Shown here: positions 2,935-61,689 of the stretch, piece after piece
Position numbering within the stretch: the first letter of the stretch is position 1
Layout of the letters: each line of letters starts with the position of its first letter
DNA from: Octopus vulgaris
Lineage: Eukaryota
Direction: 5' to 3'
Length of the DNA stretch: 64,000 bases
Assembly: GCA_951406725.2 (NCBI GenBank)
Contig: OX597825.1
Location: 42,966,001-43,030,000, forward strand
The notes under the pieces: generated by a model
What the model was told of the DNA's origin: nothing
Database searches by the model: none
The model's input: only the letters and a program-made list of their open reading frames with translations
Position numbers and translations under genes: made by a program

Positions 2935-3550
2935 GAGAACGCGGATAGGCTGAAAACTTCATAGTTTGACCAATCACAGAATGTGATCAAATGAGATTTA
3001 TTTTTCAACATAGTCCCTCTTATGGTGTCGCAGGCTTGGATCCCATTGGATCCCATTGCTGAAGAAGCTTTCATCGTGTTGGTCAAAAATAGTCACTAGC
3101 ACTGCGATACTGTTTTCCAGCCAAGTGGCTTTTCATGTGGGGTTAAAAATGATAACCTGATGGGGCTAAATCTGGAGAATAGAGAGGGTGATCAACCAAT
3201 TCAAAGCAACAGTCATGCACAGCATCCATTGACACCAAAGACTTGTGTGTTGGAGTATTGTCCTGATGAAACAAGACCCCTTTCGCCAGTTTACCTGAGC
3301 GTTTGGTCTCCTCGTTGAGGATACATTTTGCATTCCCTCCAAAAATCTGAGGCCATCACCGCCACTGCAGATGAAGCGACCATGGCCTTCTTTGGAATAG
3401 GTGAAGAGGAGTGTTTCCACAGTATGAATTGTCTCTTTGGCTCTGGTTCCAAATGATAAAATCAACACTCATCTTGAGTTAGGAAACCTTCAATGGAACC
3501 ATCTGGGACTGCCTCACATAATGTCAGATTTCTATAAGTTACTCGCAGAC
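2935..3550 (-). mobile_element. Mariner transposase remnant
   Basis: A minus frame reads LFHQDNTPTHKSLVSMDAVHDCCFELVDHPLYSPDLAPS (HQDN and YSPDLAP mariner motifs). Confidence 0.8.
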
Positions 3551-11348: not shown

Positions 11349-14300
11349 TTGTTGTTGGCATCCTTTTTGTCTCGGGAGACAATGGAGTTGCGCATAAAGT
11401 AGTCTAGTCCGGCTTTTACATTTCATATCCTGATACATTTCCTGCTGTGGCTGTGTAGTCCTATCCTGGACAAACAGTCCCTCTGGCAGGTACCGCAAAT
11501 GTAGCGAAGACTGTTCCTGGCTGGTTGTAATGCCATAGTTTCTTGTTGACGTATTTTCTTGTCTTTCCATTTCTCCTCTCTCTCTCTGTCACTCCTTTGT
11601 ATTCCCTCTTTTACGGTACGTCGCCAGCCTCCACGGTTGCCGGCAACTGCCTCTCAACCGCTAATATTGATGTTGCAGGCCTTCATGTCCCTTTTGCAAA
11701 CATCCTTGTAACGTAAGAATGGTCTACCCACAGACCTAGTACCCCTAGCAAGCTCTCCGTAGAGTATGTCCTTGGGGATTCTGCCATCTTTCATACGGCT
11801 AACATGCCCAAGCCATCTCATACGTCTTTGTGTGAGGAGTGCAAACATGCTTGGTATTCCTGCTTGCCTGAGGACATCTTTGTTGGGGATATGATTCTGC
11901 CATTTGATGCGGAGGATTATCCGGAGGCAGCGCAGGTGAAAGATGTTTAGGCGACGCTCTTGGCGTGTGTATAGCGTCCAAGTCTCACTTCCATACAGTA
12001 GAGTGCAAAGTACACATGCCTGGTAGATCTTCATTTTCGTGGTCTTGGTCAGCTTATTGTTGTCCCAAGCCCGTTTGGAGAGTTGGGCCATCGCAGCAGC
12101 TGCCTTGCCAATGCATATATTGAGCTCAGCGTCAAGGGATAGGTTGTAGGTGACGGTAGAGCCAATATAGGTAAATTTCTCCACCTCTTGTAATCTGTGG
12201 TCTCCAATATGTATGTTTGGGATGTCCGATGTAGCCTGACCCATGATGTTGGTCTTCTTAAGGCTGATAGCTAAGCCAAAGTCGTTACATGCTTGCTCAA
12301 AACAGTTAATGAGCCTTTGGAGGGCTTCTTCTGTGTGTGATACCAGAGCGGCATCATCAGCAAATAGCATCTCCTTGATCAGGACGTTTCTGATTTTGGT
12401 CTTGGCACGCAGGGGCGAGAGATTGAACAGTTTCCCGTCACTTCTACTGTGCAGAAACACTCCATCATCTGATGTCTGAAAGGCATGTGAGAGTAAGAGC
12501 GAGAAGAAGATGCCAAACAATGTAGGAGCGAGGACCCCTTGCTTTACCCGTTTTTTATTTGGAAGGCGGCTGATGTTGAACCGTTGTGCTCTATGGTGCC
12601 TTGCATGTCCTCATGGAAAGACTTGATGATCCTCAGCAGCTTTGGTGGACATCCGATTTTTTGGAGCAGGAGGAAGAGGCCTGTTCTGCTTACCGAGTCG
12701 AAGGCCTTTGTTAGATCAATGAAGGCCATATATAGTGGCATTTTCTGCTCTCTGGACTTCTCCTGAAATTGGCGTATGGAGAATATCATATCGATAGTTG
12801 ATATGCTTCTTCTAAAGCCACACTGCGATTCCGGATAGATTCGAGAAGTAAGTAGTTGTAGCCTGGCCAGGATAACGCGGGCAAAGGTCTTTCCAACAGT
12901 GCTTAGTTAACAAAGATATTCCACGGTAATTGTTACAATCACCACGGTCACCTTTGCTTTTGTAAAGCGTAATGATGTTAGCATCCCGCATATCCTGAGG
13001 GACTGTACCCTCTTCCCAGCACTGACACAGAAGCTCATGAAGATGCCGAAGCAGGATGGTGTTTTTGCCGGCTTTGATGATCTCTGAGGGGATGCCGTCT
13101 TTTCCCGGAGCCTTGTTTCTTGCTAGGGAGTCAACAGCCTTGGTGAGCTCTGTTATAGATGGCGGACTGTCAAGTTCGCACATGACTGGCAAGATCTTGA
13201 CACTCTCGACTGCATCCTCAGCCACTGTAGTCTCCCGTGAGTAGAGATCCTGGTAGTGCTCCACCCATCTATCCATTTGCTTGCTTTGATCCCTGATGAG
13301 ATCTCCAGTAGTTGATTTCAGAGGGGCTGACTTGGTTGCGGATGGACCGAGGGCCTTCTTCAAACCGGCATACATCCCACGGGTGTCGCCCCTGTCAGCA
13401 GCTGACTGGATACTCTGACAGATTTCCTGCCAATACCTGTTTGCACAGCGTCTGGCTGTCAGTTGGGTTTTATTTCGTGCCTTTCTGAGTTCTTCGAGTG
13501 ACTTTGTAGAAGAGTCCCTCTTGTATTGCATCAGAGCTGCACGCTTTGCTTCGATAACTGGCTCCAGCTCTGAGAGCCCAGCATTGAACCAATCTGGGTT
13601 TTGCCTTTCTCTCATGCCGAAAGTATCTATTGATGTCGTATACAAAGCTTCCCTGATATAGTTCCACCTACTTTCAGCAGAGGAGGTTGGGCAGCTGCTG
13701 AGGGCAACCTTGATAGAAGCAGCAAAACATTTTCGCAGTGTAGGGTCCGAGGTTCTGGCAGTGTTAATGCGTGGTCGGCCCACTTTCTTGGAGTGATGGA
13801 CTTTTTTAGGCAGAATCCTCACCCTACTTCTAATTAGTGAGTGGTCTGTGTCACAATCCGCGCTGTGGTAACTGCGGGTCAATAGAATAGAATTCAGAAA
13901 GGATCTCCGTGTAATGAAGATATCTTGGATGTCTCCAAGATGTCTTGTGGGATGGCTTGTTGGTAAAGAATGTGTTTGTGATGCACAGGTTATGGTATGT
14001 GCAGAATTCGAGTAGTCTCTGACCATTGTCATTCATGTTGCCAATACCAAAGTGTCCAACACAAATGGGCCATTAATCATGGTCAGATCCCACGCGAGCG
14101 TTAAAATCCCCTAGAAGGTAGATATTTTCAGTTGTTGGTATATTTTCTATGACACAGTTGAGATCTTTGTAGAACTGGTCCTTGGTCTCCTCTGAGCTGT
14201 AGAGAGTGGGAGCATAGATGCTGAGTAGATGTACTGAGCCAGAAGAAGTCGAGAGGCGCAGTGAGAGGATACGCTCAGTGCCTCCTGATGGTGGTTCTAT

Positions 14301-15215
14301 TGAGGAGAGTAATGAGTTTCTCACTGCAAAGCCAACGCCATGTTGACGAGGTTCTTCTGGATCGCTTCCCTGCCAAAAGAAGGTGAAATCCTGCTCTTTG
14401 AGTTTGCCGTTTGAGGGAAGTCTTGTCTCCTGTAGCCCACCAATGTCTATGTTGAGCCTCTTTAGTTCACGGTCAATGATGGCCGTTTTCCTTGTGTCTT
14501 CAATCCTGAGTAGATCATCAGATATTCCAGGGCACATGGTCCTGACATTAAAGCTTGCCAACCGCAGGACTGGTGGTTTCTTGACTTTTAGTTGTTTGTC
14601 TGGTGCAGAGGTTGCAGGCCGCTTTTCAAGTCATACTCTTAGCTCCAAGCACCCAATGAAGCAGGCGGCCTGTGGCGGGTCAGTAGCTTATTAACAGGGG
14701 GCTGCCCAGCTTGAGGTAGGCAGTAGCTAACCAATAGGGCACGGAATTACCTCCCACCGTCAGAGGTAACCCGTAGCGCCCATATTTTACGCCAATCTGA
14801 ATGGACTTATCACTCGTGACTGTTACCTCCCGTGTTGTTTCTGCAGCTTTTTACAGCAGCACTGAAGTGTCCTCTCCAGTTTTGCGCAGGCCTGGGCTAG
14901 AGATAAGAAAGTCCTGGGTAGCCCAATCGTCAGGTTTCCTCTCTCGACCTTGCTGATGTAGTCCAAAGGAGTGCAGTGCATTACGTTTGGCACCAGCTTG
15001 GTGGCAGGAGCTGCCGGAAGAGTGTCGAGTCGAACACTAAACCGCCTTCGGGGCTCCACTCCGGATTTCTTTGAAGGTTGTCTCTTTCCGTAACCCTGGA
15101 TAGGGGCCAATACCGGGTACTGTCAGCGGAGCCAGCTGAGCCCGGAACTCGTGTCAGGCAGGGTCGTCACTCCCTGAAGTAGTGAAGAAGATCGCTACCC
15201 ACTACCTTTTCAAGT
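11349..15215 (-). mobile_element. Near full-length RTE-clade LINE with disrupted APE-RT ORF
   Basis: APE motifs (SFNVRT, GLQETR, YAPT, LLGDFNARVG, DTDHSL) and RT motifs (KAPGKDG, YRGISLL, FIDLTKAFDSV, LFADD, LRWLGHV-like); short (CAA)n 3' tail next to (TA)n; GC-richer 5' UTR. Confidence 0.93.
11654..14561 (-). pseudogene. RTE ORF (APE endonuclease + reverse transcriptase) split by stops and frameshifts
   Basis: Collinear ORF pieces 14073-14561, 13851-14036, 12812-14032, 12544-12789 and 11654-12520. Confidence 0.9.
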
Positions 15216-26118: not shown

Positions 26119-27389
26119 CAGTTGTTACTTATAGCTACAATGTAGCTATATATGAGTGAAGTGGAATATGAGTGAAGTAAAGAATATAGATAGAAAAATA
26201 CGCAAGCTGCTGGGTTGTAATAGGATGCACCACCCAAAGGCAGACGTAGATCGCCTTTACCTTCCCAGAGCCCAAGGAGGTCGAGGCCTGATCCAATTTG
26301 AACTAGCTTACAAAACAACCACAATTGGACTGGCCAAATATCTCGAAATATCGAATGACTGGATGCTAAAGCTCGTGGAAAATCACGAGAGACGAAAGAA
26401 GCTTCATTCTATCATAAAGGAAAGCAAAAAAGTTGCTATTGATCTCGTGCAGGATACCCAAACTGAACAGCCCGAGGGAATTACGGCAACTATTGTTGCA
26501 AAGAAGGTGAAAATGATGGCAATGAAAAAAGCGCACGAGCAATTGGCTGATAGGTGGAAGGAGAAACCTCTGCACGGCAAATATGTGACCCGCAGCAAAC
26601 AAGCTGATGTTGACCAGAAGCAAACCCATCAGTGGCTGCGGAGCTCAGGGCTAAAAGCAGAGAGCGAAGGTTTCATCCTGGCTGCTCAAGATCAAAGCCT
26701 ATTAACCCGGAACTACCAGGCCAATGTGATGAAAAATGGAGCAGACCCAAAATGCCGATTCTGCAACGACATGATTGAAACAGTGGACCACCTAATCTCT
26801 GGATGTAAAGTCTTAGCACCAGTGGAGTATAAATTAAGACATGACAGAGTTGGCCAATATCTCCACTGGCTAATAAGTCGGCATTACAATATCAAAACTG
26901 CCGACAAGTGGTATAATCACCACCCTGAGGCTGTAACTGAAGGAGAAAATGTAACCATTCTGTGGGACTTTCCAGTACATACAGACATGAGCATCGCCTG
27001 TGATCATAATATCTCAGCGAAAGAGTTTGACAAGCTCAGAAAATATAAAGACCTACTCATTGAAATTGAGAAAATGTGGCATCTCAAGGCGGTTACAATA
27101 CCAGTGATCGTAGGAGCACTAGGAATGATCAAGAAGGGAACCGAAAATTATATGAGAATGATCCCTGCAAGAAGTGCAAAAGATTGTCTTAACTGGTACA
27201 TCACACGTATTGAGAAGAGCATTGTCGATGTGAGAACTGTTGCTGCTCATGTATTTTAATTTAACTTTAAAAAAAAAAAAAAAATGAACGAACTACTGAG
27301 TTTGGTTTAATGGCCTACCAATGTATACTATGAGTTTCTTTGCCCTACGAGTCGGGAAGACGCTCGGCAAGAAAAAGAAGAAAAAAAAA

Positions 27390-32355: not shown

Positions 32356-32836
32356 ATGCTCAGAAACAGAGAGATGGAGAGACTGAAAGGAGATCTGCTT
32401 TGTCTGGAGGGCATTGCTAAATGATAATAGAAAAGGGGCTGTCAAGTAGACGATAGTATTTCCAGCTTTTAACATATAATTGCATATGGTGTTGCAACAA
32501 CGGGTGCCTCTTGGGATAATGTGGAAAATTTGGAGTGGTTTTATAAAGCGTACGTACTGTAAATTGAGATACAAATCAAACAGCCAATGACAGGGTTTTC
32601 TCCGAAAGTTTTACTAATGTACACATTATAGCTGAGAAGTTGAGACTAGAAGCAACGTGAAAAACAGATAGATACTCTATCAGCAATGATATTCGGCTTC
32701 AATTTAGAAGGCGCCGAATATTACGAATATACGTACAGAAAGGCTCTTGCGGGATATACGATGTGTATAAAGAACATCCATATTGAATGGATGAATGAAT
32801 AATATTTATAACTGTATAAGTAGTGTAGTTTCAATA

Positions 32837-32920
32837 ATTTGCTCAGTAGTCTCTAATATGTTAGGATTTCAGAGCAGGTAATTTGCTCAGTAGTCTCTAA
32901 TATGTTAGGATTTCAGAGCA
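32837..32920. repeat. ~43-bp tandem duplication
   Basis: ATTTGCTCAGTAGTCTCTAATATGTTAGGATTTCAGAGCA present twice. Confidence 0.9.
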
Positions 32921-34019
32921 AGTGATTCACGGAGAACTGTCAGAACTCTGGAAAAACGTAGCTCGTTTGATGTGCCAAAGGAGATGAAGTACATTGTGTA
33001 GTATTTGAATGTGTACTGAGTATCAATCACAAAGTATTCCCAAATGACCCGATTAGTGAAGACGCAGCAACGGCTTGAGTGATAGCTGATGTAGATTCGT
33101 GCGAAGCACTGTCGGATTCCTATGTTAGTTCCCTAAGCGTAAGTATATAAATATATAACGAATTTCAATTGAGGGTTCAAAAGGAGGCAAACATTTTTGT
33201 TTCCCATAGATAGTTCATGTACTGGAGGAATGCAATATTAAAATACAATTTTGAACATCAAAGTTAATGTGAATGATAAATATAGTAAGGTATGATGTAC
33301 AATAACGTACAAAATTCAAAACTAGATATGATCAAAGATAGGGCCTAGTTTAACTGATGGTACCGAATAAAATTAAACCGTATCTGTAAGAGAAATGTTA
33401 TGAGAATTTGTTAGCAAAAGCTTTTGAGGCGTGTCTGAGCGGTTTTTACTTTTGCAGCTGTTTCTGCTTCTCTACTGCTTAGTTTCAATGAGAGTCAGTG
33501 TGTATTGTGGCTGTGAAAACGTCTTGCCGGAACTTCAAGGATTTTGAATGATTGCAACTGAATAAAATCCGCTTAAGGCACATATGTACCTGAAATTAGC
33601 AATTCAACGAGCACCTTTTTGTGTCCACCGCTCAAGCGAAAAGCGAATGCATGTTGCTTATTCACTTACTTTCTAGATTCAGAGCACTCTAAATTTTGTT
33701 TCCATTATTACAAGTGCACAAGACAAAGATTCCTGACACGTTGAATTCGACCTGATCGTTGAAATCACATCACTCATAATTTGGATCTGATGTTTATATG
33801 AGTACGCATAATTACGAGGTGGTTAGATCTTGTGACTGTGAAGTATGTATTTGGTAATGTAAGCATTCAATTTTAGTAAGTTACATTATGTGTTACTTCG
33901 TAAACCTTATTGTTTGTGTCAAACAACAATGTATATATCGATTGTTTATTGATATTCCATGAGCTGTTTTTAGTTTCAGTAATTCTATTCAATCATTTCA
34001 GATACTTGCGAGTGAATAT

Positions 34020-34096
<77 letters not shown>

Positions 34097-36055
34097 TGCG
34101 TGCGCACCGACACGCGAGTACTGTCCAAATCTCTGACGAATCACATACAGTTAGCTGGCATTCAATTGGCGTATCAAGTTTCGGGCATTTTGATTGGGTT
34201 TTGGATAGAAAATTCACAATAAAGTCACTTCTATTGATTTGTTTTAATGGCTTTGCGGGGTTACTGGGGAAATGTAAAGATGTTCACGACTACCCTTGGA
34301 TGGTTTTGAATGACCATAGAAAGTGCGAGCCCTCTAACTGAAAAATTGCGGATTTGTATAAAGGACACGCACACACACATACATATTTTGCCGTTTATAT
34401 ATATATATATATATAAAGGGCAGTACTATACACAAATGCCTCACGCTAGGAGGGACTCTTAAAGTCAAAACTATCACAATAAACACATTGTACCGAACGC
34501 GGGGAAATGCAACTCTCGTAGCGAGCCTTTTAAAAATAGATTCAGCCGCAGATCATATGATTTCAAGATTGCTGCACAAAATGCACTTTTTAATCGTCAA
34601 TGCAGGCATAATCAAGACACATAAAAATGAACAAAAAAATTAACATACCAGACGAACACCAAATGTATCCAGCATAGTACATAGAATTGTTCACACTTAT
34701 ATATCTATGTAAGAGGCGGGTTTTTCGAATTGCATCTTGGTACACGTGTTTATTCAGAATAAATTTCAGCACTGAATATATTCCAGTTAAATTAGCAATT
34801 TAAAAATAGGATAAAATATTTATAAGAATTTATCAAGTAGTTAACATGAAAAAGTTCATAAGGGAAAAATTTATCAATTATTCCTTTTAAATATATTTAT
34901 TTATATTAAAGGCATTACTATACTTTTTCAGGTAATCAAAATGTTCCATAATGGTAGAAAAGCAATTCTATATTTCCGAAAAAAATTATAATATTTAGTA
35001 TGTTATGACAAGTGCTAAAAGCGGAATAGGAATAAAGTGACGGATAGGTCACCATTCTTACTCATGTAAAATTCCTAGAATAAGATCTTGATTTCTCAAA
35101 ATATATGACTTCATTTACGATGATAATATACACCTACAACATTGCAAGAGCGTTATTCCATTATAATGCATCTAATTCAGAGGCAGAAAAAGGTAAAAAT
35201 AATTCTGTTCTGAAAGGTTTCTGATAAAAATAACAAAAACAACCCTGAATCACCATGAACATGCATGCATACACACACACACACACACACGAGCTGATGG
35301 GGATTCTATGTAGAGAAACAGAATAAATTAGTCCAAAACGCTGTCCACTACCTAACCAGCAAGCTCTGACTTATGTCTCTACGATTAGGATTCCAATTTA
35401 TCACCCAACCACTGCTCTTATCTTTATTCACTGCATTTTAAAACCCTAAACCTTCCACACATCTCTAGCTCAATATTAACGGTTGGGAAGCACAATATTC
35501 TGGAATATTCTCCCGACTCATTGTCTAAAACTGATTTAGACGATGTGAGGTCGACATAGTGTGGAAGTGCTTTCAAATATTGCAGATAATTCTTCTCCTT
35601 ATATAGCATAAAATAGCGAAACCTTTTGCTAATGGACAGATACATTTCAGTCTTTGACAACCTGGTCTCATTTACAGAACTAAAGGTGAGTGAGAAAATA
35701 GCAATTAATGAAAATCGTTATTGTAATCCATTATCTGTAGACTATTATCATGTTGGAGGTTATAATGTCTACATTAGAAAAGATATTTTCGCAAAGGTTG
35801 TGATGCTGTATTGTAATGCAAAATACCCATGTTTCCTCTCCAGGCAGCGTCTCTGTACGATTAACATAAGATACAGCACTATATACCAAGGACTTTGTCT
35901 TTAATTTTTCTAGTTAGTTTCCAAATTCCTTTTTCCATTTCCTAATACAAACAGATAATTTTTGTTAATTGTTCTATTTAGATAAATAAAATTCCAGTGA
36001 AAAAAGATCTGAGGCAAATAAAATACACACATATATACATACACACATTTATACA

Positions 36056-36711: not shown

Positions 36712-37267
36712 GTAGTTTTATTTTTATAGCGTGCTTTCACTTCACTACCGAGCGCAGCTCTGTGTGCCTTGGGTATGTGCTGTGATTTGTTGTGATGCTC
36801 TGATGGTTATTGTATGGAAAGTGTTCTGCGTAGGATGTGTGCAGTGCCTAGTAGTGCAATTTTCTGTATGTTATATGTGTTTGTAAGTCCTGGTGTTTTT
36901 GTTATGTATTTGTCTGAATATTTTTTTATCATGCCTAATGCACCTACTATGATAGGAATTGTTTCTGTTTTCAGGTTCCACATTCTAGTTACCTCTATTT
37001 CCAGGTCTTTGTATTTTGAGAGTTTCTCCATTTCTTTTAGAGACACGTTGTCATCTGCCGGTATTGATACATCAATTAGAAAGCATTTTTTTTCTTCATG
37101 ATCTCTGACAACTATATCTGGTCTGTTGGCCTTAATTTCTCTATCTGTGTGTATCGGCATATCCCAGAGTATGGTTGCTTTCTCGTTTTCTGTGACCTTT
37201 TCTGGTGTGTGCCTATACCATCTTTTTTCTGTTGTTATTCCATAATGTTGGCATAGCTTCCAATGTA

Positions 37268-37268
<1 letters not shown>
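36712..37268 (-). mobile_element. 5'-truncated R4/Dong-like element (RLE domain) in (TTA)n
   Basis: ILWDMPIHTDREIKANRPDIV...FLIDVSIP...KEMEKLSKYKDL: PD-(D/E)xK-type restriction-like endonuclease; flanked by TTA repeats. Confidence 0.88.
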
Positions 37269-37345
<77 letters not shown>

Positions 37346-37458
37346 GACCTTGCTCAGGTCACTGTTTGGAATCGAACTTGGAATCTTGGGGTTAAGAGCG
37401 CGGGCTGCTAACCCCAAGATTCCGAGTTCGATTCCAAGCAGCGACCTGGGCAATAATG

Positions 37459-42099: not shown

Positions 42100-43788
42100 A
42101 ATGCTTACCACTAAGTTCTTAAGTTCAATTTGAAAATTCTTCTTTTTGTCCTCCAGACTTTTGCCAAGCGCAGCAGATACAGTTGCATCAAAGAGAACGG
42201 GAGCACTAAAGAGATAACCGGAATCATCAACTTGTCCTGCTATTCACCATCATAAACTTATATTCAAGTGGCGTAAGGCTTCTCGCAATTATCAACTACA
42301 ACGACAATTCACTAACAAGTGCGGACCTCTTCAACAACTTTCGTTGGACGTATTCCACCGATTAGCGTAATTCAGCTCGTTATGTTCGGGAAGTCTTCCA
42401 CTTCGGTGGGTTTGGATATTGACAGATATGGCGCCTTATTCCACTCGAAGAGCACCAATGGCCCGACTTGTTGAGGAAGGAAATAATACGGTTCCTGAAC
42501 ACCTTCGGACTTAATAACACCATTGATACCAACCCAACTGTAATGAAGTTCCTGGGCGTGTCGTTAAAACTGCAAAATGATATTTAGAAGTCTTACATGA
42601 AACCAAACGATAGACTTTGTAATATTAATGCAAAATTTTAGTGAAGAACATAAGTAGGAGGTTCTCGAACCTCTTCTCCACTATAAAAACCTTTGACAAA
42701 GTCTTGCCCCTTTACAACAATGAAGGAGAAAAAGGCGCCGAAAGATAATCTGACTTCCCATGCTCTAGATGTAGGCAAAATGTTTTTGTCGTTTATAGAC
42801 AAGCACTTACCTACCCACTATAGTTGTAAGAAACTCCTTAACATACAACATAATATTTGTTCTAGTTCTACTCCCTATATAATTGTATGTATAAACTGCA
42901 ACCAGAGAAACCAACTGTTCTCGCAGAAACAGGGACCTGTGCCCAATGATCCTACAAGACCGAAGCTATCAAATATTACACGTCCGTCAGAGCAACCAAT
43001 GTGGAAAAGACTCTCTACAAAGATATATGAGGGAATTTCAGAAGGAACTTCAAGGCAATGGTGAACAATCGTACCTTCTCCTTTAGGTATCAAAGCAAGC
43101 AAAAGGCAATAAAGCTTTCTAGCAATATATGGGACTTAAACGAGAAAGCTATAAGCAATACAATCAGCAAGAAAATCCTGGCAAGAGATAAATCCTGTAC
43201 AAATGACAGAATCCCGAAGAGCGCAGTGGACATCAATAAATGTCAAAATGCCAAAAGAGAAATCTTTGGTAGCTGCCCGTATGTCATCATGTACATTTTG
43301 AAATTTTACTCTCCTTCTCATCAAGCTCAACAAGGAATGCTACAAACTTCTTATCTTATACAGTCCTATATGATACCTTCTAGTGTATTCGATTTTAAAT
43401 TTCTTCTCTGTTTTTATTTTTATTATCGTTTCATGGTCTTTCTAAATTGTTAACTATTTTTCATGCATTATTATATTATATACTTCTTTATTCTTATATT
43501 TCTTTGTTTTAACATTTATTTTTTTATTATTCTTTTTATCTTATTCCATTATATTTCAATGTATAATTATGACTAAGTGTTTCTTATAAGCCATATATTA
43601 CGACTGAACTTCATCCCCTAACAGCCTTCGCATACCTAGGTATATGCGTGCGCGCCTACGAATCTCTAACTCTCTCTCTCTATTTCTCTTTCTCTCTCTA
43701 TCTATATCTATTTAGCTAGCTATCTAGTTATCTATTTGCATGTGTGCGTCTGTGTGTATGTGTGTGCTGAGTGTGTGTTTGTGTGTGT

Positions 43789-47795: not shown

Positions 47796-48473
47796 GCAGT
47801 TACAGTATATATGTGTAAATAATATCACGAAGTAATACTTTAAAGGATACAACTAGTATAGCTGCAGAGTATAAAATATACATCCTTAATTATCTCTTAC
47901 TTAAGTTAAAATTAAAATGATCAATTATGAAGGAATTACCCATGTTTAAGTATTGGAAGATTATAATATATATGCATAAACATTCATATGCACATATAAA
48001 TATATATATGAGGTCATTTTCTTTACAATTTTACCAACATATCTTCAGGTTCTATTTTAAAATATCGTTAATCTAATTTTACATAATCTTAAAATTAAAT
48101 GTTAAATTAACAATTAAATTAAACATTAAAATTATAGTTCATAAATTTAAGAATTAAAAATTAAGATTTAAAAATTATAGATTATACATTATAAAGATGA
48201 ATTAATATACATATAAGAAACTTATAAAAATCAAGCATATAATGTCAAATACAAGATGTAAGATATAAAATATACATCAGAATCAAATGTCAGTGATTAA
48301 ATGTGAAAAATAACGTAAAATGTGCAAATATATATCCTCCTATGATGGAACCAAGGGTTGTACCTGATTGATTTGGAAATTCGTTTTTCCCAAATTATTT
48401 TAATTCATATACGTATATCTATCTATCTATATATGTATCTATCTATGTATCTATCTATGTATCTATATATCTA

Positions 48474-48530
<57 letters not shown>

Positions 48531-48536
<6 letters not shown>

Positions 48537-49111
48537 GATTATTTTCGAAATTTTTTCTCTTATGAGGTCTTTCACGCTATCTACCTGACAATTTCTTGTT
48601 AAGTTTTCCTTATTAAGTAGTTGTCCTTAATTGCTAAATTTTTATTCCGAAAAAACTTTTCCTTTCCCGAAATTCAATTCGTAAAAGTCTGCCATTTACC
48701 GGATGTAATATATGTAAACTCACCCATGTGCTTCGTTGATGTTGATCAGTTAGCTGATCGGCTTAAGCGAGGCAAGGTCGTTTATTTATGATACGTCCAG
48801 GCCTGCTGATGAATACGTAAGTATGAAATCACTGTGATACAGGTCTATATTTTTTAAATGTCTTACTTTGAAAAATTGCATTCGGTGGGATTAGTAAAAT
48901 TTTTGGTAGAAATGACTAATTGTCCCTCTTAGCGTGTGGCATGTATGTATAATGCCCTCTGGCATGTATGTATAATGCCCTCTATATATAAATTAATATG
49001 TTCAATAAGAAATAATTATTTTCGAATTTTTTTCTCTTATGAGGTCTTTCACGCTATCTACCTGACAATTTCTTGTTAAGTTTTCCTTATTAAGTAGTTG
49101 TCCTTAATTGC

Positions 49112-49116
<5 letters not shown>
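48531..49116 (+). mobile_element. Terminally redundant non-coding element with hammerhead (retrozyme/pLTR-like) in (TA)n
   Basis: Direct repeats 48531-48639 and 49008-49116; HHR at 48799-48846; (TA)n on both sides. Confidence 0.8.
48799..48846 (+). ncRNA. Canonical type I hammerhead ribozyme
   Basis: AGGCCTG-CTGATGA-ATAC GTAA GTAT-GAAA-TCA CTG TGA-TA-CAGGTCT: 7-bp stem I, 4-bp stem II with GNRA loop, complete core; predicted cleavage after A48839. Confidence 0.9.
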
Positions 49117-49210
<94 letters not shown>

Positions 49211-49274
49211 GTGTATATATGTATGTATATATATATATGTGTGTGTGTGCATGTATATATGTATATATATATGT

Positions 49275-49325
<51 letters not shown>

Positions 49326-49394
49326 TGCATATGTATACATATATAATGTATTTGTGTGTGTATATATATATATATATATATAAATAAATATATA

Positions 49395-49915
49395 TATTAC
49401 AAATTGAGATAGGGGTTGTGAGTGCAACCCACCATGGGATAATATATATCCAATATACTCCCTGTAAAGCACCCAACAAAGTTAATACATAAATGTTAAG
49501 AATTGCGATGCAATTAATTCATTTATTGTATTATATGGGCGAAGGTAACATGTTTTACCACAAATTCATAATACAAAATAAGAAAATGGAGAAATACACC
49601 TTAATCAATAATCAACTACCAGACAATACCCATTCACATAATTTATTAACCAACTACATATGAACATCAAGGTCAAACATAATAGTACAGAACAAAACAG
49701 TGCACATCAATGAGTAATATGATACAATAAGTACAATATATATAAATAAATAAAAATAAATATGAATATAAATATAAACTATATCTTACTGCTGTTTCAG
49801 CCATGTAGATATGAGTATCTCATTATGCTCATATTAGCCAGGTGTGATAAGTTAATATGTGATTATAAATGATACACTTACAAATATACCCCCAGGCCTC
49901 TTCAGAGAATAAAGT
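49395..49915 (-). mobile_element. PLE pLTR-like repeat with long-stem-II hammerhead (49783-49911)
   Basis: Minus strand TCT-CTGAAGA-GGCC..(~90 nt)..GGCT-GAAA-CAGCAG-TA-AGA; 49400-49700 has a diverged direct copy at 59055-59340. Confidence 0.6.
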
Positions 49916-50658
49916 ACAATCTAAACATGAATATCAGAGAAGGTACACCCATACAAGTATGAGTACATATACATAATATATAATATACACATTCATATAA
50001 GCGTATATACACATGCACCTATATATATATACGTATATACATAATAATATATAATAATATACATACATATATATAATGTTACAGTTAGTCAAATCAATAT
50101 ATTAGAATATCATAATAATATACAAACATACACATATCCATATACAAATGTACATATACAAAGTCAAGAATTCATTATAATTTTAGATCTATATTTTTTC
50201 CTTTATTCTAACGTGTCAAAGTACTCGGAATCTATAGGCTGATTGTTGTGATGATGTGCATGGGTTTTATAAGGTCTCTGCATTCTCTGTGAATGTTATT
50301 GTGACCACTTGATATTGACCTAGTTCTCCTAACGCCAAATCTGTTTATCAAATAGTAGTACTTGGCATTGTAGTTGTGACAATCCTGTTCCCTACATAAA
50401 TTCCTTTATATGGAACTCTGACATCACCTTCACCCCATTTCTATAAATAGAAGATCTGTATTGTCTCCTTTCATTTGTTCTTTCCTCTCAGAACCTTACA
50501 GTTGTCCGGAACAACTGAATTTTAGTCAGTCATTTGATGGGCTCCACTACTACAAATATTCTTAAAACTTAAATCCACATCTTTGTCTATATATCTACCA
50601 TCTCTGTAATGTTACCGCTTGATATGAAAATGTTATATTAATGGAAAACCTCTATAAA

Positions 50659-50742
50659 TGGCTGATGAGTGCTCAGCATTTTAAAACTGTTGGAATACTT
50701 ACAACATTTAATAAAATGATGTAGTGCGAAACGATCGTACCA
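50659..50742 (+). ncRNA. Minimal type I hammerhead with palindromic stem III
   Basis: TGG-CTGATGA-GTGCT...AGTGC-GAAA-CGATCG-TA-CCA; ACGATCGT palindrome; GUA triplet ending at 50739. Confidence 0.7.
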
Positions 50743-50913
50743 AATTACCGGAGTTATTCTTGTTGCTTATTTTGATTATAATCATCCCACGGATTTATAT
50801 GGATAACGCTATACAGAATTCTGGTGCATCTAAATTACATACCATATTCATTTGAATCTAAATTTTTGCTGAACTTATATATATATATATATATATACAT
50901 ATATGTATGTATA

Positions 50914-52359: not shown

Positions 52360-52539
52360 ATTTAACAAGAATTGTATTAGCATTTATACATTTAGGCAGG
52401 TTTAAAGGAGTGGTGGTGGGGGACTTTTTGGGGGGTAGGCATAGCGCAAAATATCATACTTGGGGGAGTGGTCAAGGAGTCAGTGGTAAGTTAGATGAAA
52501 GAATAGATAAATAAAAAAATAAAAAAATAAAAAATATAA

Positions 52540-52570
<31 letters not shown>

Positions 52571-53186
52571 ATAAAATAAAAAAATAAAAAAATAAAAAAT
52601 ATAAAAAATATATATAAAAAAATATATATATAAAATATATATATACAAAAATATATATATAAAAAGGGGGGGATAGAGTTATAGGTAAATAAGGAGATTC
52701 TCACTTATACCTATACACACATGTATACGTATCTACACACACATACATACATACACATATATATACACACACATATACATATATACATATATATACATAC
52801 ATATACATACCTACACATACACACATACATACATACAAATATACATATACATATATATATATACAATCCAATACAGGCCCATTCCCTAATTTTAATTTTA
52901 TTATCTTCATTTATTACTTTTGTTATCTTTGATCGCTAGGGCTAAGAATCCTGGCAATGGCTGCAGTCCATTTGTCTGTCTACTAGAAGGCAAGTACTCA
53001 TTCCCGCACGCACACTCATTAGCACGTACATTCACCCATTCGTACACTCATACACATACACGTACGCACGCGTTATATTCATACATACAAACATCTACAT
53101 ACGTTCACGTATATACACATACGTACTCGTACCTACAGATTCGTGTCTACACTTTAGGAGGCTAGACTATACATATACACCAATAA

Positions 53187-53218
<32 letters not shown>

Positions 53219-53835
53219 ACACTATACATACACACACACACATATATACTCCTACATACAGATACATACCTATATATATATATATATATATATATACATG
53301 CATACATATATATATATATATATATATACACATACATACACATACACACATACATATACACACACATACATACACATATATATATACATACACAAACATA
53401 TATACACACATATATATATACATACACACATACACACATACATACGTATACATACATACATACATCCATACATCCATACTTACATGCATTTATACGCATA
53501 CACACACCCATCTATATATATGCATATATATATACATATATATATATATACACACTCACACATACATATACAAATCCACGCACACACATACATACATACA
53601 CGTATACGCATACACGCACATACACATATACATGCGTACCCATACACGTGCACACACGCACGCGCATCCATATATATACACACACACACATATATATACA
53701 CGTGTGCAAGCATACATACATACTCATACGCGCACACATACTTACAAATACATATATGCACACACTTACACACATATATATACATACACATATACATGCA
53801 TACATACATATATGCATACATACACACACGCACTC

Positions 53836-53868
<33 letters not shown>

Positions 53869-53941
53869 TACATATATATACATATATATATACATACATA
53901 GATACACATACGCATACATACACATACACATACATACACAC

Positions 53942-53986
<45 letters not shown>

Positions 53987-54195
53987 TACATATATACACA
54001 CATACATACATATACATACACACACATACATATATACATATACACTGATACACATACCCATACTTACACATGCATATACTTATATCACTACATACTCACA
54101 TATATAAACATATATACATATACACACATACATATATACATGTACATACACATACGTATGCATATATATACATATACATATATATACACATATAC

Positions 54196-54234
<39 letters not shown>

Positions 54235-54486
54235 TACACACATATACATGTATACATACGCAAAAATGATACACATATATACACATACACACACACAGAC
54301 AGATGCATATACATACATATATATATATAAACTACATATCTATATAAATACATACATAATACACATATACACACACATATATATACATTCATGCATATAC
54401 ATATACAAGTATACACATACATACATACACACATACATACATATACACACACACATATATACACATACATACATACATACACACAT

Positions 54487-54529
<43 letters not shown>

Positions 54530-54908
54530 CACGTACACATATACATATGTATATATATATCAACAAGGGAGGGTAAAGTTAATTAGTTATTAATCAATTT
54601 CATCAAGTGTTCAGTATGTAAAGGGACCATTATTATTTTGAGTAAACAATGTTAGAGGGAAAAAATTCTCTAAGTAGTGGAAGAGGCTAAAAAACTTTAT
54701 TGGCTGCTATTTCTAGAAAGTTTAGTATGTGGCAAAGTAATTTATTTTATTTTCTAATCCCTAATTATATAATATTTTATACATACATACACATACATAA
54801 GCACATACATTTACACATACATATGCATATACATATATACACATATACATACAAACACATATACACATATACACACACACACACATACAAGCACATACAT
54901 ATATATAT

Positions 54909-54951
<43 letters not shown>

Positions 54952-55212
54952 AATATATATACATATATATTTTTACATGCATACATACACACACACACAC
55001 ATAATACATGCGTATATTCCTACTGTACCCATGCATTTCTATACAAATATACATACATACATACGATACACATATACAAGCGTGCACATATAATATGTGA
55101 AAGGTCTTAGGAGAAAAGGTAATCGGGGGTGCTAGGGGAACAGTGGGGTTGGGGGGGGGGGGTAGGGGGGGTTGTGTGGGGGGGGGGGGTTGTAGGGGGC
55201 GGTTGGTTGTCA

Positions 55213-55604
55213 TCAATCAGGTTGCCGGGTAGGTCTATAGTTCTTGTAGTTCGCATACTTCTTATGCATACAATTTGGGGAGTGTTCTGAAAATTTGTTA
55301 AGGAGAGGGCCTTTGGCGAACAAGATCTCTAGGCTCTCTGACATGCATAGGTCACAGCAGGTATGTCCTCCTGTGTACGAGCGCGCCTTCTGTAGTAGTT
55401 TCCACTTGGTCTTGAAGGGGATTGAGTTCCTTTTAAGGTACCAGATGTGGGCGGCGAGGGTAGTTTGGTTGGATTTATCCTGTCGCCGGAACGAGTGTGT
55501 ATGTGCATACCAGCGGGTCTTAAAGCTGTTTGACGTCATTCCAATGTAGGATTTACTTTTATCGTCAAGGCCTGATCTTACCTCGCATTTATATACTAGG
55601 TCCC
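55213..55604 (-). pseudogene. PLE GIY-YIG endonuclease C-terminal fragment (left arm)
   Basis: Mirror of 55619-56010 with one amino-acid difference (CMSES vs CISES). Confidence 0.85.
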
Positions 55605-55605
55605 A

Positions 55606-56010
55606 AACTGCCTACAGAGGGACCTAGTATATAAATGCGAGGTAAGATCAGGCCTTGACGATAAAAGTAAATCCTACATTGGAATGACGTCAAACAGCTT
55701 TAAGACCCGCTGGTATGCACATACACACTCGTTCCGGCGACAGGATAAATCCAACCAAACTACCCTCGCCGCCCACATCTGGTACCTTAAAAGGAACTCA
55801 ATCCCCTTCAAGACCAAGTGGAAACTACTACAGAAGGCGCGCTCGTACACAGGAGGACATACCTGCTGTGACCTATGCATATCAGAGAGCCTAGAGATCT
55901 TGTTCGCCAAAGGCCCTCTCCTTAACAAATTTTCAGAACACTCCCCAAATTGTATGCATAAGAAGTATGCGAACTACAAGAACTATAGACCTACCCGGCA
56001 ACCTGATTGA
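55606..56010 (+). pseudogene. PLE GIY-YIG endonuclease domain, 5'-truncated, no RT
   Basis: NCLQRDLVYKCEV...KSYIGMTSNSFKTRWYAH..SFR...TTLAAHIW.LK...W...CDLCISE...LLN...CMH: VY/YIG motif, catalytic R and E, PLE-type Cys/His residues. Confidence 0.88.
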
Positions 56011-56284
56011 TGACAACCAACCCCCCCTACAACTCCCCCCCAACCCCCCCCCCTACAACCCCCCCCCCTACAAACCCCCCCCCCAACCCCACTTGTCCCC
56101 TAGCACCCCCGATTACCTTTTCTCCTAAGACCTTTCACATATTATATGTGCACGCTTGTATATGTGTATCGTATGTATGTATGTATATTTGTATAGAAAT
56201 GCATGGGTACAGTAGGAATATACGCATGTATTATGTGTGTGTGTGTGTATGTATGCATGTAAAAAAATATATATGTATATATAT

Positions 56285-56329
<45 letters not shown>

Positions 56330-56709
56330 ATATATATATGTATGTGCTTGTATGTGTGTGTGTGTGTATATGTGTATATGTGTTTGTATGTATATGTGTA
56401 TATATGTATATGCATATGTATGTGTAAATGTATGTGCTTATGTATGTGTATGTATGTATAAAATATTATATAATTAGGGATTAGGAAAATAAAATAAATT
56501 ACTTTGCCACATACTAAACTTTCTAGAAATAGCAGCCAATAAAGTTTTTTAGCCTCTTCCACTACTTAGAGAATTTTTTCCCTCTAACATTGTTTACTCA
56601 AAATAATAATGGTCCCTTTACATACTGAACACTTGATGAAATTGATTAATAACTAATTAACTTTACCCTCCCTTGTTGATATATATATACATATGTATAT
56701 GTGTACGTG

Positions 56710-56758
<49 letters not shown>

Positions 56759-57014
56759 ATGTGTGTATGTATGTATGTATTTGTATATATGTGTGTGTGT
56801 ATATGTATGTGTGCGCGTGTGTGTGTATGTATGTGTATACTTGTATATGTATATGCATGAATGTATATATATGTGTGTGTATATGTGTATTATGTATGTA
56901 TTTATATAGATATGTAGTTTATATATATATATGTATGTATATGCATCTGTCTGTGTGTGTGTATGTGTATATATGTGTATCATTTTTGCGTATGTATACA
57001 TGTATATGTGTGTA

Positions 57015-57053
<39 letters not shown>

Positions 57054-57385
57054 GTATATGTGTATATATATGTATATGTATATATATGCATACGTATGTG
57101 TATGTACATGTATATATGTATGTGTGTATATGTATATATGTTTATATATGTGAGTATGTAGTGATATAAGTATATGCATGTGTAAGTATGGGTATGTGTA
57201 TCAGTGTATATGTATATATGTATGTGTGTGTGTATGTATATGTATGTATGTGTGTATATATGTATGTGTATATGTGTTATATATATATATATATATATAT
57301 ATGTGTATATATGTGTGTATGTATGTGTATGTGTATGTATGCGTATGTGTATCTATGTATGTATATATATATGTATATATATGTA

Positions 57386-57418
<33 letters not shown>

Positions 57419-57917
57419 GAGTGCGTGTGTGTATGTATGCATATATGTATGTATGCATGTATATGTGTATGTATATATATGTGTGTAAGTGTGTGCATAT
57501 ATGTATTTGTAAGTATGTGTGCGCGTATGAGTATGTATGTATGCTTGCACACGTGTATATATATGTGTGTGTGTGTATATATATGGATGCGCGTGCGTGT
57601 GTGCACGTGTATGGGTACGCATGTATATGTGTATGTGCGTGTATGCGTATACGTGTATGTATGTATGTGTGTGCGTGGATTTGTATATGTATGTGTGAGT
57701 GTGTATATATATATATATGTATATATATATGCATATATATAGATGGGTGTGTGTATGCGTATAAATGCATGTAAGTATGGATGTATGGATGTATGTATGT
57801 ATGTATACGTATGTATGTGTGTATGTGTGTATGTATATATATATGTGTGTATATATGTTTGTGTATGTATATATATGTGTATGTATGTGTGTGTATATGT
57901 ATGTGTGTATGTGTATG

Positions 57918-57948
<31 letters not shown>

Positions 57949-58023
57949 GTATGCATGTATATATATATATATATATATATAGGTATGTATCTGTATGTAG
58001 GAGTATATATGTGTGTGTGTGTA

Positions 58024-58066
<43 letters not shown>

Positions 58067-58895
58067 TTATTGGTGTATATGTATAGTCTAGCCTCCTAAA
58101 GTGTAGACACGAATCTGTAGGTACGAGTACGTATGTGTATATACGTGAACGTATGTAGATGTTTGTATGTATGAATATAACGCGTGCGTACGTGTATGTG
58201 TATGAGTGTACGAATGGGTGAATGTACGTGCTAATGAGTGTGCGTGCGGGAATGAGTACTTGCCTTCTAGTAGACAGACAAATGGACTGCAGCCATTGCC
58301 AGGATTCTTAGCCCTAGCGATCAAAGATAACAAAAGTAATAAATGAAGATAATAAAATTAAAATTAGGGAATGGGCCTGTATTGGATTGTATATATATAT
58401 ATGTATATGTATATTTGTATGTATGTATGTGTGTATGTGTAGGTATGTATATGTATGTATATATATATGTATATATGTATATGTGTGTGTATATATATGT
58501 GTATGTATGTATGTGTGTGTAGATACGTATACATGTGTGTATAGGTATAAGTGAGAATCTCCTTATTTACCTATAACTCTATCCCCCTTTTTTTATATAT
58601 ATATTTTTGTATATATATATTTTATATATATATTTTTTATATATATTTTTTATATTTTTTATTTTTTTATTTTTTTATTTTATTTTATTTTTTTATTTTT
58701 TTATTTTTTATTTTTTATATTTTTTTATTTTTTTATTTTTTTATTTATCTATTCTTTCATCTAACTTACCACTGACTCCTTGACCACTCCCCCAAGTATG
58801 ATATTTTGCGCTATGCCTACCCCCCAAAAAGTCCCCCACCACCACTCCTTTAAACCTGCCTAAATGTATAAATGCTAATACAATTCTTGTTAAAT

Positions 58896-61343: not shown

Positions 61344-61689
61344 ATATGATATATTTATATATGTTTTGTAGTTTACATTGGATGCGAAATTAAACAATTT
61401 GTAGGTGAAGATGTCAAATTAATTAATAAACTAATTTGCATCCGGAGGAATTCTCCGTTTTCAAAATTAATAATGATATTTGATATTTTATGTTACGTTA
61501 TATATTATATTCATTGATGAAATATCCCTTCAAAATACAATATTTTAAACCAGTGTATCTTTGATACGTCATCATTTAGTTTTATTTCAAGATTTCTTGT
61601 CAATAGAGAAAGAGCCGGTTTCTAACATAGATCCAAGGTTCCTTCACTGGAATTTCAACATCATCAGCAGGTCATTTTTATTTGTTTGT

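Follow-up and report, generated by a model that had tools for sequence, protein, structure and literature searches.

A young hammerhead-bearing repeat inserted in (TA)n in Octopus vulgaris is likely a non-autonomous Penelope-like element

Short repeats that carry a hammerhead ribozyme and encode no protein are a known kind of element, and their link to Penelope-like elements (PLEs) has already been argued in print, animal retrozymes being described as derivatives of PLE pLTRs (10.64898/2026.07.22.740005). Rolling-circle reverse transcription has been proposed for both retrozymes and PLEs, as a proposal rather than a direct demonstration in the accounts given by the papers cited here. In vitro, the PLE endonuclease is reported to nick AT-rich DNA, including the pLTR of the element itself, and reverse transcription to start internally (PMC11167929). 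(TA)n is described as a PLE target that hides target-site duplications (PMC8557442), and an optional tail of 30-40 bp as lying between two start sites of reverse transcription (PMC11167929, PMC8557442).

We analysed a stretch of 64,000 nucleotides from Octopus vulgaris (hereafter the window; contig OX597825.1, positions 42,966,001 to 43,030,000 of the forward strand), in which a sequence-only reading had singled out a retrozyme-like insertion of greater than unit length (Table 1). The direct repeats and their 477-bp period, the (TA)n on both sides, the exact 23-bp tandem duplication and the absence of a meaningful ORF described in that reading were all borne out. The terminal repeats were identical at 107 of 109 positions. 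Both ends of the element are sharp, having only 1-2 nt (A or AT) in common with the flanking TA runs, the flanks contained no remnants of the family, and no target-site duplication could be discerned within the (TA)n. The longest stop-free stretch in the unit was 56 aa, and the longest from an ATG 44 aa, in six frames that were also read round the unit. At the site matching the G of the 5' repeat (49014 in the 3' repeat), no G allele at 5% or more was listed among the variants of the deep runs. The TA-rich tract after the candidate 3' end may possibly represent a self-target or leftover target, by analogy with the activities reported in PMC11167929.

Table 1. Position of the element, its parts and related features in the window
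Feature	Position	Strand	Remarks
Insertion of 586 bases	48531-49116		1.23-mer of the 477-bp unit, in (TA)n
Left microsatellite, TATC/TA, likely insertion target	48414-48531	.	Pure (TA)n at 48480-48531
5' copy of 109-bp terminal redundancy	48531-48639	+	G at 48537; family-majority A at 48550
One 477-bp repeat unit	48531-49007	+	No ORF; ~33% GC; strong predicted self-pairing as RNA
Predicted long rod	48638-48913	+	48638-48698 paired with 48855-48913; tip formed by side hairpin 48701-48798 and the hammerhead
Type I hammerhead motif	48799-48846	+	Predicted cut after A48839; near-palindromic stem III at 48828-48838
Candidate 3' end region	48921-48982	+	Three CCCTC motifs ending at 48927, 48959 and 48982; putative role
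Exact 23-bp tandem duplication	48937-48982	+	Family trait, not private to the window copy
Internal TA-rich tract	48983-48997	+	Directly after the candidate 3' end; read from the sequence
3' copy of terminal redundancy	49008-49116	+	Minority allele T at 49027
Right microsatellite	49115-49397	.	Pure (TA)n at 49115-49192, then mixed
Diverged full-unit relative	34410-34923	-	71% (305 of 428 aligned positions identical); decayed hammerhead
Decayed PLE fragment, RT thumb to endonuclease	42465-43453	+	Followed by an AT-rich tail
PLE GIY-YIG C-terminal fragment	55213-55611	-	Head to head with the next
PLE GIY-YIG C-terminal fragment	55600-56010	+	Head to head with the previous

We then compared the element with the systems that it most resembles, the likeness to described retrozyme families being one of description and not of sequence comparison. 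The unit is a few-hundred-bp ORF-less repeat with GC below 50%, as are the non-LTR retrozymes reported from coral, mussel and axolotl (PMC7229834; 10.64898/2026.07.22.740005), and, as judged from its repeats and reading frames, it is without the plant-type LTR layout. It shares with the animal retrozymes of these accounts a type I hammerhead with a short palindromic helix III, a monomer with strong predicted self-pairing, a high copy number seen as thousands of variant contigs, the presence of PLEs in the same genome and an internal indel of ~20 nt in the unit. Its length of 477 bp exceeds the 150-450 bp given in PMC7229834 and falls within the 51-972 bp given in 10.64898/2026.07.22.740005. 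In contrast to animal retrozymes as described there, the copy seen here is dispersed, sits in (TA)n, amounts to 1.23 units and has one hammerhead, and it lies outside what the preprint calls 'active', namely two hammerhead-bearing units (10.64898/2026.07.22.740005). Our literature search, which covered the main text of papers, listed none on an octopus or cephalopod retrozyme. Taken together, the element resembles animal non-LTR retrozymes in how it works and is probably one of them, which would make it a non-autonomous dependant of PLEs. It represents a new family of a known kind, whose membership of the retrozymes is likely and not proven.

Resemblance to PLEs with a C-terminal endonuclease (PMC11167929, PMC8557442, PMC4209133) extended to the partial tandem layout, the hammerhead, the AT-rich or microsatellite target, the lack of a visible target-site duplication and candidate alternative 3' ends 32 nt apart. 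Unlike the PLEs of these reports, however, the element has neither an RT nor a GIY-YIG ORF, and its period is 477 bp and not kilobases. Its hammerhead belongs to the canonical size class and not to the minimal PLE type, which is described as having a larger helix II and a shorter helix I (PMC4209133). Non-autonomous Chlamys PLEs such as MRC1 offer a further parallel, since they are portrayed as ORF-less PLE dependants with pLTR-like redundancy and head-to-tail insertions, and a microsatellite bias is described for Chlamys elements. MRC1-type elements are nevertheless green-algal and mostly hammerhead-less in that description (PMC8557442), whereas the present element resides in an animal genome and carries a hammerhead.

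The hammerhead had been called fully canonical. As read from the sequence, stem I consists of 7 bp (48799-48805/48840-48846), the CUGAUGA box occupies 48806-48812, stem II consists of 4 bp (48813-48816/48821-48824) closed by a GUAA loop, GAAA is found at 48825-48828, and stem III pairs 48828-48831 with 48835-48838. Thus CUGANGA, GAAA, the UH core and helices I-III are present, with helix I open as in type I. A strict descriptor matched nowhere else on either strand of the window; when the whole window was dinucleotide-shuffled 300 times, 3 of the shuffled sequences gave any match. Rfam returned no match in the window at the gathering threshold, and no hammerhead in the element at E<=10, where three chance matches were obtained; the call therefore rests on the descriptor. 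The label of fully canonical is nevertheless too strong, for pair 10.1-11.1 is A-U (A48813-U48824), where G10.1-C11.1 is reported as typical, not absolute (PMC4209133), and the monomer is predicted to misfold. In the predicted fold of the unit, stems I and II formed with a probability of 0.89-0.99, and stem III with one of only 0.02-0.03 because 48807-48810 paired with 48828-48831 instead (0.86-0.95). The active fold of the monomer was predicted to lie 4.8 kcal/mol above the misfold at 37 °C.

Stem III is a palindrome round one central base, and an intermolecular stem III duplex between two molecules was predicted at -10.1 kcal/mol. Such a stem would suit cleavage as a dimer, the mode by which the short palindromic stem III design is described to work (PMC4209133). 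The palindrome recurs with a changed centre in the relative at 34.4 kb, and likewise in the loose end of one X12 contig. Among the 25 variant rows over 477 nt, no variant of at least 5% was listed within 48798-48882, a stretch that includes the hammerhead; this is only suggestive of its conservation. With a single hammerhead, the copy cannot by itself release a monomer or an RNA circle. The divergent junction check at A48839/C48840 put forward in the sequence-only reading needs correcting, since a circle re-ligated there would read like genomic sequence and the locus has one hammerhead.

Two more motifs of this type were seen in the window. The motif at 50654-50745 (+) has intact core boxes, a palindromic stem III, a long stem II and a 3-bp stem I; it passed the relaxed descriptor only, for which 16 of 300 shuffles gave such a match, and is possibly a decayed PLE-type ribozyme. 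The CTGATGA...GAAA motif at 61620-61675 (-) has weak stems and failed both descriptors.

The predicted RNA fold of the unit was unusually stable. Folded as a circle, it reached -123.7 kcal/mol compared with -87.8 ± 5.2 in 40 shuffles (z -6.8). The linear fold gave a z of -7.5, against -3.3 for the opposite strand, indicating that the + strand folds better than the - strand. A core without the duplication and the terminal repeat (48640-48936) still gave a z of -5.9, below all 105 control windows scored out of 119 candidates, the lowest of which was at -5.6. That control window, 32644-32940, contains a 44-bp tandem duplication. Family variants introduced singly had a mean ddG of -0.44, as compared with +0.88 for type-matched random changes (P 1e-4), and thus tended to keep or improve the predicted fold. 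The effect was found for the seven majority differences (P 2e-4) and for the 15 minority variants alone (P 0.04), 22 of the 25 variant rows being used and those at 48641, 48761 and 49008, which were below 5% in both deep runs, omitted. Selection for the predicted RNA fold thus appears to act on the source elements. A self-paired fold does not tell a circle from a linear RNA.

The element was not single-copy but a member of a family. It was present in 20 of 24 listed runs, which bear four organism labels and come from nine studies, and none of the runs containing it was listed as RNA. Four runs were compared with one unit (48585-49061). X1, whose type is not on record and which may be the source of the window itself, yielded 4,386 contigs, and X3, guessed to be DNA, 1,412; most were 90-100% alike, and in both runs they covered 30 of 30 bins of the unit at similar high depth, contig depth being a poor measure and not a copy number. 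X8 and X12, guessed to be RNA and represented by contigs only at low depth, were used neither for nor against expression. From these counts we infer many hundreds to thousands of genomic copies, and the window copy differed from the family majority at only 7 of 477 sites. The element is thus a member of a high-copy, low-divergence, young family. The 23-bp duplication is a trait of this family, since contigs of X3, X8 and X12 run across it with no gap of 23 nt.

Being de Bruijn paths, the contigs collapse the repeat, and among them no tandem dimers or multimers of the family were seen. One 508-nt contig (X12-9) goes round the unit, as would be expected equally of a tandem, a circle or a 1.2-mer. 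Joints that 'go back' at the unit edge were rejected as evidence of a tandem or circle, as they only repeat the junction of the window copy itself. Summed contig depth, a poor measure here too, showed no doubling over the redundant part. Two scans of metagenome contigs for the hammerhead motif gave 0 matches, and the sole match among genome contigs (L001), which resembled the element in the motif only, was set aside as chance. We did not count as family members the weak matches found at 3010-3032 and, upstream of the relative, at 35400-34900.

The relative at 34.4-34.9 kb aligned with a score of 158, whereas the highest score among 200 shuffles was 70. It has a period of ~492, a terminal redundancy of ~17 nt and a single 23-mer; it starts near phase 48962, runs round to phase 48982 and ends in (TA)n. 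It abuts another repeat, and there is no (TA)n at its 5' end. Two X3 contigs end at phase 48927 and continue into (TA)n, and one X8 contig begins at 48851 after (TA)n. (TA)n is therefore seen on both sides of the window copy, on one side of the relative and in three contigs. None of the 20 loose ends listed, from which these contig endpoints were taken (there were 108 more), fell at 48639 or 49008. The 3' ends of the other copies fall after CCCTC motifs. In a unit that has the 23-mer only once, the end at 48927 and the one at the 48959/48982 phase are separated by 32 nt, a step that we liken to the PLE tail because of its size (PMC11167929, PMC8557442). The right end of the window copy, at 49116, does not lie at these sites. 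The endpoints are thus not fixed, and the permutation proposed for this element is supported at a small n, namely the window copy, one old relative and three contigs; the description of a retrozyme-like repeat of greater than unit length and without fixed ends is likewise supported. The duplication of the family lies at the phase of the short terminal redundancy of the relative, as if two copies had once been joined head to tail.

What kind of template gave rise to the copy? It extends 309 nt upstream and 277 nt downstream of the cut site, and therefore a self-cleaved linear monomer cannot have served as template unless there was a switch. With the same proviso, the template would have been either a multimer left uncut or a circle closed again by ligation. 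These two alternatives, both raised by the sequence-only reading, make different predictions for the terminal repeats, as one circle copied 1.2 times should give identical ones. The repeats disagree at 48550/49027, with A in the 5' copy, T in the 3' copy and no third letter listed. A accounts for ~80% of the depth in both deep runs and T for at most ~20%, and the T at 49027 looks like a standing minority allele of the family. The differing repeats lean towards a tandem template, although the argument involves one site at the boundary of an A/T run, where recurrent change is plausible. Of the two templates offered, the tandem thus fits the two alleles better.

If two hammerheads had cut an RNA of ~477-480 nt out of a multimer, and this RNA had been re-ligated into a circle and copied 1.23 times round, the greater-than-unit length with an intact cut site inside would be accounted for, as would the differing endpoints of other copies. 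The strong self-pairing agrees with that reported for retrozyme circles (PMC7229834), and the circle would be protected by a hammerhead that is inactive in the monomer, as predicted here. We nevertheless consider this origin unlikely. Apart from the two apparently existing family alleles in the repeats, the linear fold has a score no worse than that of the circular fold, several 3' ends are grouped at CCCTC sites in the manner of PLE tails, and unprocessed RNA is reported as the dominant PLE substrate in vitro (PMC11167929). It is similarly doubtful that a young, high-copy, (TA)n-targeted retrozyme family, probably of octopus, has kept a Penelope tail signature while its spread depends on a hammerhead-ligated circle that a misfolded core keeps inactive and that is copied round by reverse transcriptase.

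The same pair of alleles would also be expected if the copy were left over from a longer local array, or from two copies that recombined, after deletions in the flanking (TA)n or gene conversion had shortened it; its redundancy would then be uninformative on reverse transcription. Neither end of the window copy lies at the CCCTC sites, and the 1-2 nt of microhomology with the TA runs and the unstable microsatellite flanks point the same way. Both junctions are sharp, however, the flanks are free of family remnants, and the seven substitutions from the family majority leave little time for such trimming, which makes this history very unlikely.

The window also holds remains of PLEs. In tblastn searches, 150 PLE-type proteins gave no match at E<=1 between 47 and 50.5 kb, although the same proteins matched 42.5-43.4 and 55.2-56.0 kb strongly. 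No hammerhead was detected in the AT-rich tail of the first of these fragments. GIY-YIG clusters were named by Atlas for the remnant at 55.2-56.0 kb, and its long relatives have an RT motif, a Cys-rich linker and a C-terminal endonuclease, an order that corresponds to the Neptune or Nematis layout described in PMC8557442. Word-index protein searches with the 55.6-kb fragment found nothing, and neither the PLE fragments nor four long relatives could be placed in a Pfam family, the only match being a sub-threshold one to a coiled coil. The head-to-head fragments lie in a large inverted duplication at ~52500-58750, centred near 55600, which may be a PLE inversion carrying its flanks or an assembly fold-back. 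The PLE remnants share no DNA with the element, and the PLE partner is consequently inferred rather than identified.

Other repeats were also present. A near-full LINE at 11654-14630 (-), with endonuclease and RT, an RVT_1 match and frameshifts that break it, is presumably RTE-like. Fragments at 26156-27259 (+), for which a weak zf-RVT match was obtained, and at 36807-37358 (-) come from the 3' part of a non-LTR element and adjoin (TAA)n, which we take to be R4/Dong-like. SINEs at ~50.9-51.3 and 61.1-61.3 kb resemble, we presume, octopus SINEs.

The PLE remnants bear on whether the element could belong to an autonomous PLE, as its pLTR with the tail or as a rare gutted by-product, instead of forming a self-propagating ORF-less family. 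Remnants with RT, Cys linker and C-terminal endonuclease lie 5-6 kb away on each side, and the 32-nt step is as long as a PLE tail. In addition, some X12 contigs at a depth of 39-60 join 49018-49061 to unrelated upstream sequence, and other families or an autonomous partner may share this stretch. On the other hand, the period is 477 bp with no ORF between the repeats, and no RT plus GIY-YIG ORF was found between or adjoining them at the 48531-49116 locus. The whole unit is covered at similar high depth in the two deep runs, with no frequent branch to other sequence among the loose ends listed, and the old relative has the same ORF-less, full-unit layout. Finally, the 7-bp stem I and 4-bp stem II are unlike the minimal type that PMC4209133 describes for PLEs. 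We therefore regard the element as most improbably a mere part of an autonomous PLE.

The reading that we hold to be somewhat favoured by this evidence is that of a dispersed copy of an ORF-less hammerhead repeat, likely a non-autonomous PLE (non-LTR retrozyme), which was put into (TA)n by a borrowed PLE protein copying a multi-unit transcript, probably a tandem read-through and not a circle. A locus with at least two units would be transcribed on the + strand. The hammerhead would be largely off as a monomer and would cleave once the palindromic stem III had paired two copies with each other, so that uncut multimers could survive. The PLE GIY-YIG endonuclease would then nick (TA)n, and the PLE reverse transcriptase would start inside the RNA, in this case at the phase of 49116. 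Copying of 586 nt across the uncut hammerhead and past a full period, with a stop at the phase of 48531, would result in the 109-bp redundancy. A copy with one hammerhead would probably be a dead end unless it gained a second unit.

The family may be useful as a test bed, being young and abundant, with copies that lie singly in (TA)n, so that an assembly can show, for hundreds of insertions, where each begins and ends. The phases of the endpoints, together with the agreement of alleles between terminal repeats, can separate a circular template from tandem read-through, which is an open step of the retrozyme life cycle as proposed in PMC4209133 and PMC7229834. If the circle reading were true, dispersed 1.x-mers such as this one would be genomic footprints of rolling-circle reverse transcription.
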